Positions 1,577 to 3,306 of a DNA stretch of 3,722 nucleotides are shown here, in pieces. The stretch lies in the IMG/VR virus record IMGVR_UViG_2778261570_000023; one strand, given 5' to 3'. This DNA comes from a virus (lineage: Duplodnaviria > Heunggongvirae > Uroviricota > Caudoviricetes). Below the pieces are notes generated by a model. It was not told the origin of the DNA. It ran no database searches and saw only the letters and a list, made by a program, of their open reading frames with translations. Numbering within the stretch: the stretch's first letter is position 1; each line of letters starts with the position of its first letter. The translations under genes were made by a program, and so were the position numbers.

Positions 1577-1606
1577 ATAGCGGCCCCTTGTGGTCGCTAT
1601 TTTTTT
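1577..1606 (+). terminator. Rho-independent terminator
   Basis: Stem 1577-1585 (ATAGCGGCC) pairs with 1592-1600 (GGTCGCTAT): 9 bp with one G-U wobble, 6-nt loop, followed directly by a T7 tract (1600-1606). Lies 6 nt past the stop of the 76-aa ORF. Confidence 0.7.
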
Positions 1607-1634
1607 GCAAAAAGAAAGCGTAATCAATGAGATA

Positions 1635-1676
1635 AAAAACAGTACCCACCGTTTAAAAAGGGTGGGTACTGTTTTT
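1635..1676. terminator. Strong bidirectional terminator-like hairpin
   Basis: Perfect inverted repeat CAGTACCCACC (1640-1650) / GGTGGGTACTG (1661-1671) with a 10-nt loop, flanked by A5 (1635-1639) and T5 (1672-1676). This gives a U-tract after the stem on either strand. Second hairpin in tandem, about 65 bp upstream of alpA. Confidence 0.6.
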
Positions 1677-1740
1677 CCCGCCCTGCCCTGTTTTACCGTA
1701 TTTATCACCGGAATACGCCGGATTAACGAGGTAAAACATA

Positions 1741-2228: not shown

Positions 2229-2711
2229 CTATTTTATCTTGTGCTGTCGTAGGTAACGTCTCACACCTGGTATTTTTTCGCCAGTATCGGGGTTAATAGC
2301 TTGAATTTTTTTATCGTACAAATCTACTCTAACTATTTTCCCATGTTCGTTTTTTCCATAAACATACTCTAACTCAGGGAAATAGTGAGAGGCGTGAAGA
2401 AAATAGTTGTGTTTTAAATTTGCATATTCAAAAACTAACTTAGCATCAACACATATATATTTGTGACCGCCATGAATATCCATATAAAAATGATCTTCGT
2501 GTGTTGTTATTCGTTTTTGTTTATTAACAGGATTATCAGATGATTCCTTTCTCTCTTCATACAACTTAGCCCGTTCGGCCTCTTCTTGTGCAATTCTTCT
2601 GGATGCCTCGGCTCTAATTTTGTCGTGTGAATTTTCTGAAATAAATAATTTGGTAAGAACGTAAATGGATAAAATTACGATCGCAATGAAAATGACGAAT
2701 CCCATAATCAT
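2229..2711 (-). CDS. Membrane-anchored protein of unknown family, 160 aa: N-terminal single TM helix, charged Ala/Glu/Arg-rich linker, His/Tyr-rich C-terminal domain
   Basis: Minus-strand ORF with stop TAG at 2229-2231. Favoured start is ATG 2711-2709 (MIMGFVIFIAIVILSIYVLTKLF...), preceded by AGGAG at 2720-2716 with a 4-nt spacer; a second in-frame ATG lies at 2705-2703. The ORF track extends it to an ATG at 2759 (adds MSQPEELRLQRLHRRL), which has no SD but sits 9 nt after the upstream stop. Residues 3-22 are strongly hydrophobic. AT-rich coding sequence. Confidence 0.75.
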   Translation of the reverse strand: MIMGFVIFIAIVILSIYVLTKLFISENSHDKIRAEASRRIAQEEAERAKLYEERKESSDNPVNKQKRITTHEDHFYMDIHGGHKYICVDAKLVFEYANLKHNYFLHASHYFPELEYVYGKNEHGKIVRVDLYDKKIQAINPDTGEKIPGVRRYLRQHKIK

Positions 2712-2734
2712 TAATCTCCTATGTAATCTTTGGA

Positions 2735-2757
2735 GTCGCAACTCCTCTGGTTGCGAC
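2735..2757 (-). promoter_or_regulatory. Intergenic stem-loop between the RHH gene and the membrane-protein gene
   Basis: Perfect 8-bp inverted repeat GTCGCAAC (2735-2742) / GTTGCGAC (2750-2757) with a 7-nt loop. It lies between the RHH stop (2769-2771) and the AGGAG/ATG of the downstream gene. No U-tract follows on the minus strand, so it is not a canonical terminator. Confidence 0.3.
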
Positions 2758-2768
2758 ATTAGTGATAG

Positions 2769-2963
2769 TTATCCCTTTGGCTCAATTCCGCGCCGTAACA
2801 GTTCTTTGCGCCCTAACTCTTTAAGCCAGTTGGCAAGACTTACTCCATCGTTACTGGCTTCGTTATCAAACTGCTCCTTCAATTCAGGGACTATACGCAT
2901 ATGGAATGGTGGGGCCTTTCCTGTGCCTTTTTGTTTTTTATCGCGCTTAATAACTGTTGACAT
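2769..2963 (-). CDS. Arc/Mnt-like ribbon-helix-helix (RHH) DNA-binding protein, 64 aa, with Lys-rich N-terminal tail
   Basis: Minus-strand ORF from ATG 2963-2961 to TAA 2771-2769. Translation is MSTVIKRDKKQKGTGKAPPFHMRIVPELKEQFDNEASNDGVSLANWLKELGRKELLRRGIEPKG. The segment PPFHMRIVPELKEQFDNEASNDGVSLANWL follows the Arc/Mnt pattern (P.F..R.P.E.......A...G.S.N..L). Weak SD GGTG 6 nt upstream. The track's longer 102-aa version begins at a TTG (3077) and is not favoured. Confidence 0.7.
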   Translation of the reverse strand: MSTVIKRDKKQKGTGKAPPFHMRIVPELKEQFDNEASNDGVSLANWLKELGRKELLRRGIEPKG

Positions 2964-3022
2964 GTGTACACCTATAGCGTTATGTTTTGGTTCGTTAGGT
3001 GTACACCTTAACACGTGTACAT
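2957..3022. promoter_or_regulatory. Divergent control region with three GTGTACAC-type palindromes (putative operators) and a candidate rightward promoter
   Basis: Palindromes: GTGTACAC at 2964-2971 (overlapping the RHH start codon), a perfect 12-bp AGGTGTACACCT at 2997-3008, and a degenerate ACACGTGTACAT at 3011-3022. Centres are about 35 bp and 16 bp apart. Candidate plus-strand promoter: -35 TTGACA (2957-2962), 18-bp spacer, -10 TATGTT (2981-2986). I could not confidently place the leftward promoter. Confidence 0.4.
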
Positions 3023-3102
3023 CAAAAAACGCAACGCCCCGCAGTGGTGGCACACATGCAGGGCGTCTAACCACCAACGATAACGAGAGTATCGAGGTAG
3101 CT

Positions 3103-3306
3103 ATGAGAAATCATACCACACACCCGCAAGGGCGGGACTCGCACAACCTGAATAAATATATCTGGCGTTTTATCGCCCTGAGCACGGCACAACCGCGCGT
3201 GATTACCATTGAGGCCACCAGCGAACAGGAAGCACGCCAGCAATCCCCGGCTGGCTGCGTGATGGTATTCGCCGCCCGTATTCGTCAGGAGGTGCGCCAT
3301 GATTAA
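3103..3306 (+). CDS. Small conserved island/prophage protein, 67 aa; resembles from memory the Icd-like (host cell division inhibitor-like) small proteins annotated in P4-like elements
   Basis: ATG 3103 preceded by GAGG (3094-3097, 5-nt spacer); stop TAA 3304-3306. Translation MRNHTTHPQGRDSHNLNKYIWRFIALSTAQPRVITIEATSEQEARQQSPAGCVMVFAARIRQEVRHD. The family name is recalled, not searched, so it is low confidence; that it is a real coding gene is moderately confident. Confidence 0.6.
   Translation: MRNHTTHPQGRDSHNLNKYIWRFIALSTAQPRVITIEATSEQEARQQSPAGCVMVFAARIRQEVRHD

Follow-up and report, generated by a model that had tools for sequence, protein, structure and literature searches.

An Arc-like ribbon-helix-helix protein and two conserved palindromes as a candidate repressor–operator module of enterobacterial phage satellites

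The window analysed here is a 3,722-nt stretch of DNA (IMG/VR record IMGVR_UViG_2778261570_000023, assigned to Caudoviricetes), which the annotation of the full element identified as the leftmost part of a small island, inserted in Escherichia coli at tRNA-Pro next to yejM. The island is an enterobacterial phage satellite of the phage-inducible chromosomal island (PICI) type, and its organisation is the one described for Gram-negative PICIs (PMC6092414; PMC10111431). A minus-strand gene for a 64-amino-acid (aa) ribbon-helix-helix (RHH) protein and a plus-strand operon, which begins with an icd-like gene and includes the primase gene, diverge from an intergenic region where an initial annotation had noticed three related palindromes. 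The features at this locus are the following:

2769–2963, minus strand: RHH gene, start codon ATG at 2963–2961; stand-alone Arc-like RHH protein with a basic N-terminal arm
2957–2986, plus strand: predicted promoter P_R, −35 box TTGACA (2957–2962), 18-nt spacer, −10 box TATGTT (2981–2986), predicted start ~2993–2997
2962–2973: site 1, ATGTGTACACCT, candidate operator kept in position and with a class-specific core in 56 distinct relatives
2997–3008: site 2, AGGTGTACACCT, perfect 12-bp palindrome and candidate operator
3005–3034, minus strand: predicted promoter P_L, extended −10 TGTTAAGGT (3013–3005), weak −35-like TTGCGT (3034–3029), predicted start ~2996–2999
3013–3024: third copy, ACGTGTACATCA, degenerate, 9/12 matches in register, core GTGTACAT at 3015–3022
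3103–3306, plus strand: icd-like gene, the first of the rightward operon (NCBIfam phage_ICD_like, E = 1.4e-19)

The RHH protein, the palindromes and the predicted promoters

The 64-aa product is a stand-alone Arc-like RHH protein, since profile, family, model and structure comparisons all agreed on this. A profile made from 17 homologues and compared with the PDB matched P22 Arc (E = 7e-4) in an ungapped alignment, where residues 12–59 lie on Arc residues 2–49, that is, query residue n corresponds to Arc residue n−10. PHROG 228 (“Arc-like repressor”) also matched the protein with E = 2.4e-5. The AlphaFold monomer consists of an extended segment followed by helices 26–38 and 43–57, with predicted local distance difference test scores of 83–93 over residues 21–60. 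The beta-strand (~18–25, PPFHMRIV) was not called in this model; such a strand forms only in the dimer. In the Foldseek comparison Arc was the leading match, and nearly all the best matches were RHH proteins, including NikA, AmrZ, CopG and RHH antitoxins.

In databases the protein is currently named “hypothetical” or, as NCBI does for many homologues, “toxin-antitoxin system HicB family antitoxin”. This annotation, a weak match to Pfam HicB (PF05534, E = 0.009, covering residues 20–48 only) and the fact that RHH antitoxins autoregulate via palindromes would all fit a toxin–antitoxin pair, where the RHH protein is a HicB-type antitoxin, the membrane protein encoded behind it is the toxin and the palindromes are the operator of the system. 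However, the Pfam score of 16.4 bits is below the cut-off of 21, the NCBIfam scan of the RHH protein gave no HicB match, and a toxin-neutralising domain is missing from the 64-aa chain. Neither HicA nor any other toxin family was detected among the neighbouring genes by Pfam, NCBIfam and PADLOC. Moreover, relatives have a different gene or none at all behind the RHH gene, whereas this gene itself and the operators are retained, the gene always diverging from the replication operon. We therefore regard the toxin–antitoxin explanation as very improbable, and the name “HicB antitoxin” is unfit for a protein having neither a HicA neighbour nor the N-terminal domain of HicB.

The initial annotation had reported a perfect 12-bp palindrome at 2997–3008, a near-copy overlapping the RHH start codon at 2962–2973 and a degenerate third copy at 3011–3022. 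The first two are present exactly there: AGGTGTACACCT occupies 2997–3008, and ATGTGTACACCT covers two bases of the minus-strand ATG along with the Shine–Dalgarno sequence (reverse complement AGGTG, 2969–2973). The degenerate sequence also exists, but the 12-mer that is in register with sites 1 and 2 lies at 3013–3024, thus the reported interval was two bases off. Within the window, the 8-mer core GTGTACAC with at most one mismatch occurs four times compared with 1.09 expected (3 of 200 shuffles reach four), and three of the four matches are grouped inside 59 bp. As the initial annotation had proposed, the motif was also sought elsewhere in the complete element, and across the 25.5-kb locus containing it the 12-mer with at most one mismatch was found only at sites 1 and 2.

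The locus was compared with 102 loci, 56 of them distinct, which came from E. coli records, assemblies of six genera and IMG/VR. Sites 1 and 2 were found at the same place in all of these, 33–37 bp apart and mostly 35. P_R is the sole sigma-70-like match between 2700 and 3200, agreeing with the consensus at 10 of 12 positions, and 53 of 54 distinct intergenic regions have the pattern TTGACA-17/18-TAnnnT despite their variable middle. The TTGACA overlaps RHH codons 1–3 (Met-Ser-Thr), where the Ser2 codon is TCA in all 18 distinct genes, while the other invariant residues with several codons all vary synonymously. Consequently, it is the DNA itself that is constrained here. Site 1 fills the spacer of P_R and site 2 spans approximately +4 to +15, in accordance with the initial annotation, which had put the first into the spacer of the TTGACA/TATGTT promoter and the second just past its start.

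A leftward promoter, which the proposed mechanism requires and which had not been named, is probably supplied by a minus-strand extended −10 box (TGnTAnnnT) overlapping site 2, likewise in 53 of the 54 distinct regions. The −35 box of P_L, located 18 bp upstream of this −10, was assigned by eye. The final four bases of TGTTAAGGT are the outer quartet of site 2, which extends over the leftward start region as well as the downstream half of this −10, and the third copy falls in the spacer of P_L. As the predicted starts lie at ~2993 and ~2998, the two promoters would stand face to face and overlap, with both sites inside both polymerase footprints.

The serious rival explanation is that the RHH protein autoregulates only the leftward transcript, while the operon is run by AlpA or by its leader RNA and the TTGACA/TATGTT pair is not a working promoter. 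AlpA is the demonstrated activator of Gram-negative PICIs (PMC6092414), the conserved structured leader element could act independently, and the TTGACA is partly explained by the coding of Met-Ser-Thr. On the other hand, coding does not account for a Ser2 codon that never varies, nor for the TAnnnT kept 17/18 bp downstream, and there is no other promoter-like site 5′ of the icd-like gene. Between the Icd-like fragment that follows alpA and the end of the cargo gene, at 2208–2240, a hairpin (CCGGAA-AAAAA-TTCCGG) with a T-rich stretch was found, which may be a weak bidirectional terminator parting alpA transcription from the cargo/RHH unit. Since this hairpin and two opposite-strand genes separate alpA from the icd-like operon, the latter needs its own promoter. 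Control of the leftward transcript alone is thus considered unlikely, although it deserves more weight than any of the other alternatives.

Co-variation of the sites with residues 19 and 21

The RHH protein predicts, by its residues at positions 19 and 21, the cores of both sites with no exception in the comparison set, and the loci belong to five classes according to these two residues:

P/H: 14 distinct loci, core GTGTACAC
Q/R: 14 distinct loci, core GTG-RY-CAC
A/Q: 23 distinct loci, GTRYGTAC at site 1 and GTACRYAC at site 2
T/Q: 4 distinct loci, core GTACGTAC
M/N: 1 distinct sequence (3 loci), cores GTATAGAC / GTCTATAC

The two residues align with Arc Gln9 and Asn11, while Arg23, which is invariant just as the outer AGGT/ACCT quartets of the sites are, aligns with Arc Arg13. 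In the Arc–operator crystal structure, the bases are contacted by Gln9, Asn11 and Arg13. Of all columns in the alignment, 19 and 21 alone carry the full 1.5 bits on operator class. For the 19 distinct regions of the first set, the distance between the cores of site 1 and site 2 within a locus averaged 0.42, whereas shuffled partners gave 2.09 ± 0.28, and none of 50,000 shuffles reached the observed value. The suggestion of the initial annotation that the palindromes are bound by the RHH protein was thereby supported comparatively, through the co-variation of the cores with the residues aligned to Gln9 and Asn11, and sites 1 and 2 are very probably binding sites of the Arc-like repressor.

The idea that the repeats are functionless products of chance or of a recent local duplication could be based on the 8-mer count of the whole window, which is only modestly unusual, and the third copy does behave so. 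For sites 1 and 2, however, this idea is refuted by their position, spacing and co-variation, which hold over six genera and 56 distinct sequences, and we assign it a negligible probability.

The helical part of the protein often has its nearest neighbour in another class, for example, a Yersinia P/H protein pairs with an E. coli A/Q protein at 85% identity. AlpA alleles are also shared across the classes (L002 of the Q/R class and L008 of the A/Q class are 100% identical, L006 of the P/H class and L007 of the Q/R class 95%), and the icd-like leader and gene, common to different classes, do not track the operator class. As the helices, AlpA and the icd-like leader all ignore the class, the link between the residues and the sites is more than the common ancestry of whole elements.

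These distributions also bear on the explanation that the sites belong to another binder, such as AlpA, the integrase or a host factor, or that sites 1 and 2 act as an RNA or DNA hairpin. The two sites do form a perfect 11-nt inverted repeat in the window (2964–2974 / 2996–3006, 21-nt loop), and compensatory arm changes occur in some A/Q-class elements (L008 compared with L011). However, Q/R sites are direct copies, at their centre the two sites of one element have AC, GT or GC independently of each other, many A/Q-class elements have non-complementary arms, and given the predicted starts neither transcript would hold both arms. Nor does the site type go along with the AlpA alleles or the icd-like leader. 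We consider this pair of explanations very improbable as well, marginally more so than the toxin–antitoxin one. The hairpin reading was rejected on the basis of the direct copies with freely varying centres in the Q/R class, and AlpA as the site-binding protein on the basis of its identical alleles alongside different operator classes.

The third copy matches the class core at 7/8 positions only in the close relatives of the window and at 6/8 in several other P/H-class elements. In the A/Q and Q/R classes, the third position of an element is no closer to the core of that element than to those of other classes, and apart from one 6/8 match in the M/N class, a class-specific third site was not found in any class beyond the P/H sublineage. 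The third copy is thus unsupported as a general operator; it may at best be a weak, lineage-specific auxiliary site, outside the conserved design.

The fifth class is represented by L104 from IMG/VR and two identical loci, which have Met19 and Asn21; Asn is also the Arc residue at the aligned position. The L104 operators, AGGTCTATACCT and ATGTATAGACCT, contain TAGA/TCTA, which we take to be the boxes of the P22 Arc operator, and a partial copy, AGGTCTAGAG, is located 12 bp rightward.

Neighbouring genes, leader region and distribution

The gene order and two further features of the island are as follows:

Island, from the left: integrase, small open reading frame (ORF), AlpA, Icd-like fragment, cargo and RHH genes (opposite strand), Icd-like onward
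Rightward part of the element: Icd-like, small ORFs, DUF4222, primase, single-stranded DNA-binding protein, DUF1441
2229–2711, minus strand: cargo gene, 160-aa membrane-anchored protein, 3′ of the RHH gene
3034–3066, minus strand: conserved GC-rich hairpin between the operator module and the icd-like Shine–Dalgarno sequence, followed by TTGCGTTTTTT

The same synteny, with a divergent intergenic region of 135–140 bp, was found in Edwardsiella, Enterobacter, Providencia, Yersinia, Symbiopectobacterium and E. coli. The RHH gene lies beside the integration module and in every case diverges from the icd-like...DUF4222...primase/helicase operon; this rightward operon contains no gene of the Ant family. 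At ≥80% coverage, the RHH gene and the intergenic region are present in 224 of 5,426 complete E. coli genomes (~4%), and some of the E. coli relatives are capsid-encoding or prophage-embedded islands. Relatives L002 and L008 sit inside a prophage major capsid gene, parts of which flank the island on either side, and this placement corresponds to the “helper-embedded PICI” configuration (PMC10111431). A scan of genome contigs with the single RHH protein gave just two irrelevant Lachnospiraceae matches, and the search of a phage collection gave three at 70% identity, adding one more A/Q-class example (L003).

Pfam, NCBIfam, PHROG and PADLOC gave no family match for the cargo protein. Its annotated start, ATG 2759 (176 aa), lacks a ribosome-binding site. 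ATG 2711 (160 aa) is probably the real start because it is preceded by AGGAGA and opens at the transmembrane segment. The cargo gene is probably co-transcribed with the RHH gene from P_L, and the leftward transcript most likely carries it as a passenger. A perfect 8-bp hairpin, GTCGCAAC-CAGAGGA-GTTGCGAC (2755–2733), lies in the interval from the RHH stop codon to the cargo gene (2712–2768, minus strand). In the relatives, the slot behind the RHH gene holds a 451-aa protein, a SWIM protein, a 360-aa protein or a 41–50-aa peptide, or is empty before a convergent alpA, and the gene occurs with no cargo gene behind it in L014–19, L025 and L026. Whatever the cargo, the RHH gene, both sites and the divergent icd-like/primase operon are constant in all relatives. 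As many of them keep the gene without cargo, the RHH protein is a core regulator and not a cargo regulator, in line with the initial annotation, which had taken it for more than the latter; its divergent position is kept in the cargo-free relatives too.

Gene calling at the RHH locus is inconsistent. The RHH gene of the Q/R class has TTG as its start codon and is unannotated in the RefSeq records examined, including an O157:H7 genome. In L007 (4558–5301) and L002 (8002–8268), a long “hypothetical protein” or a “pseudogene” is called on the opposite strand over the RHH gene and the operators, and a matching spurious ORF can be read in the window (2665–3306, plus strand). The present assignment corrects this systematic mis-annotation, in which the gene appears as HicB, as hypothetical or, in O157:H7 records, as the spurious opposite-strand ORF.

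The Icd-like fragment (1952–2200), a pseudogene in the annotation of L001, follows alpA immediately and is preceded by a degenerate leader copy (AAAAAGCGCCCCG...CAATTAACC). The occurrence of this fragment with a degenerate leader after alpA suggests that the RHH–cargo–leader–icd block recombined into an older alpA–leader–icd order.

The hairpin at 3034–3066 is the left boundary of a block that, according to the homology breakpoints, is common to satellites with a different regulator. The minus-strand fold of the leader is the more stable one in 22 of 24 relatives, and Rfam gave nothing in the intergenic region. In this hairpin and a second stem (3068–3075 with 3096–3103), the C.A mismatches of the plus strand correspond to minus-strand G.U pairs. 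At 3118–3110, the minus strand has an extended −10, TGGTATGAT, with a predicted start at ~3103, and it is kept as TGnTAnnAT in all relatives having this leader type, across differing Icd N-terminal sequences. The minus strand of 3022–3118 is a candidate for a cis-antisense RNA of ~80 nt, which would cover the icd-like Shine–Dalgarno sequence and start codon and end at the hairpin and TTGCGTTTTTT. The 83-nt form of this RNA folds with z = −4.9.

Most related satellites are without the RHH gene, and the same slot, divergent from icd-like, holds a small, unrelated YlcI/YnfO-family protein there. These modules (L027 2870–3080, L028 2885–3085 and L029 2870–3076) contain three copies each of their own repeat, GTGTTCAACACCT, GTGCGATTCA or GTGTGTTTCA, and each has a TTGACG −35 box with one repeat in the spacer. 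The YlcI/YnfO satellites match the window only from ~3027–3031. This slot looks like the place of a swappable regulator-plus-operator cassette. The PDB sequence search with the YlcI/YnfO protein returned only noise.

Elsewhere in the window, a hairpin-rich stretch at 1597–1678 (plus strand), after the ORF 1341–1571, gave a sub-threshold match to Rfam STnc240, an enterobacterial small RNA (27.5 bits against the gathering score of 55, E = 0.4).

Proposed repression and comparison with known systems

Considering these results, we propose that an RHH dimer, or a higher-order assembly of dimers, would recognise the two AGGTGTACACCT-type 12-bp palindromes located ~35 bp apart. By alignment with Arc, the beta-strand would be the DNA-reading element, in which residues 19 and 21 seem to be responsible for the variable central base pairs, while the outer AGGT/ACCT, which does not vary, may be read by the likewise invariant Arg23. 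P_R, as the strong promoter, would drive the icd-like/primase replication operon, and P_L would produce the mRNA of the RHH and cargo genes. Since the sites sit within the two overlapping promoters, their occupancy would keep the replication operon silent and set the level of the repressor by negative autoregulation. Repression might be relieved by a helper-phage factor or by an AlpA-dependent step.

We consider it likely that an Arc-like repressor acts in this manner through the two operators and overlapping promoters on both the replication operon and its own gene. The sequence features, the RHH fold, the co-variation and the conservation of the promoter elements are established here by comparison, whereas we infer that the protein binds, in what stoichiometry it does so, that it represses and does not activate, and how the repression lifts. 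The initial annotation had already suggested autoregulation combined with repression of the rightward operon, and this is supported by the conserved promoter elements that overlap both sites, including a synonymous codon position.

Several points weigh against this model. The promoter calls are consensus matches only. The conservation of site 1 is partly due to the RHH Shine–Dalgarno sequence and start codon, and that of the site 2 outer quartet partly to the leftward −10. Within the A/Q class, the coupling of site 1 to site 2 was not significant (0.78 observed compared with 1.1 shuffled, fraction 0.15), so the number of independent class switches is small, and the chief statistical caveat is that the five classes may stand for few independent switches. 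The conserved minus-strand leader hairpin with its U-run hints at control outside the model. Finally, the control of Gram-negative PICIs has been assigned to the activator AlpA, with no repressor found (PMC6092414).

Fillol-Salom et al. call it unclear whether a global repressor exists in Gram-negative PICIs (PMC6092414), and a 2026 survey puts “HicB” among the toxin–antitoxin accessory genes of PICIs. In the searchable literature, we found no functional description of the RHH protein and no paper joining PICI and ribbon-helix-helix. A role of the protein as “master repressor” or in “immunity” is what we infer. Somewhat tentatively, we suggest that the RHH protein could be the missing “immunity” switch of many Gram-negative and capsid-forming PICIs, that is, a master repressor existing in at least five mutually non-cross-reacting classes, which would be determined by two beta-strand residues and exchanged along with the neighbouring operators in a cassette of ~120 bp. 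If the protein is a repressor, it explains the silence of these satellites and defines immunity groups that allow several satellites per cell. Gram-negative PICIs would then be controlled by a repressor like the Staphylococcus aureus pathogenicity islands (SaPIs), and not merely activated by AlpA. The classes would also provide a natural RHH–DNA recognition code, in which two residues vary with the central four base pairs, as a series for the study or engineering of DNA recognition by beta-sheets.

Among the closest known systems is Arc/Mnt at Pant/Pmnt in the immI region of P22, where a single operator serves Arc to repress two divergent, overlapping promoters; dimers of dimers are the form in which RHH proteins bind (PMC2724298). 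In both systems the RHH protein is small and carries an arm at its N-terminus, Arc being the best match in sequence as well as in structure, and in both the operator lies within overlapping opposed promoters (predicted ones in our case), so that one protein could serve both directions (PMC2724298). In contrast to the single 21-bp operator of P22, there are two 12-bp palindromes ~35 bp apart in the satellite. The target is the antirepressor gene (ant) in P22, while here it would be the satellite replication module (icd-like, DUF4222, primase). Moreover, P22 is a phage, whereas this module belongs to a PICI-type satellite and comes in at least five natural specificity classes.

Stl and Rpr of the SaPIs and Gram-positive PICIs are larger helix-turn-helix proteins and have no homology to the 64-aa RHH protein. 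Their position is similar, as their genes also lie by the integration module and diverge from the excision/replication operon, of which they are the silencers (PMC6092414), a role predicted for the RHH protein too. HicB antitoxins have the RHH-type DNA-binding segment, the source of the database annotation, but the protein described here is not one of them, having neither a HicA partner nor the N-terminal HicB domain.

CopG of pMV158, omega and ParG are minimal RHH repressors which act at palindromes overlapping the promoter of a replication operon and bind as cooperative dimers of dimers (PMC2724298); they are also among the Foldseek matches. Unlike the divergent regulator of the satellite with its two promoters and two sites, CopG is co-transcribed with its target from a single promoter. 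Compared with these systems, an Arc-type RHH repressor acting on palindromic operators in overlapping divergent promoters would be an ordinary mechanism, and the added interest is in its location and the natural five-class specificity series.

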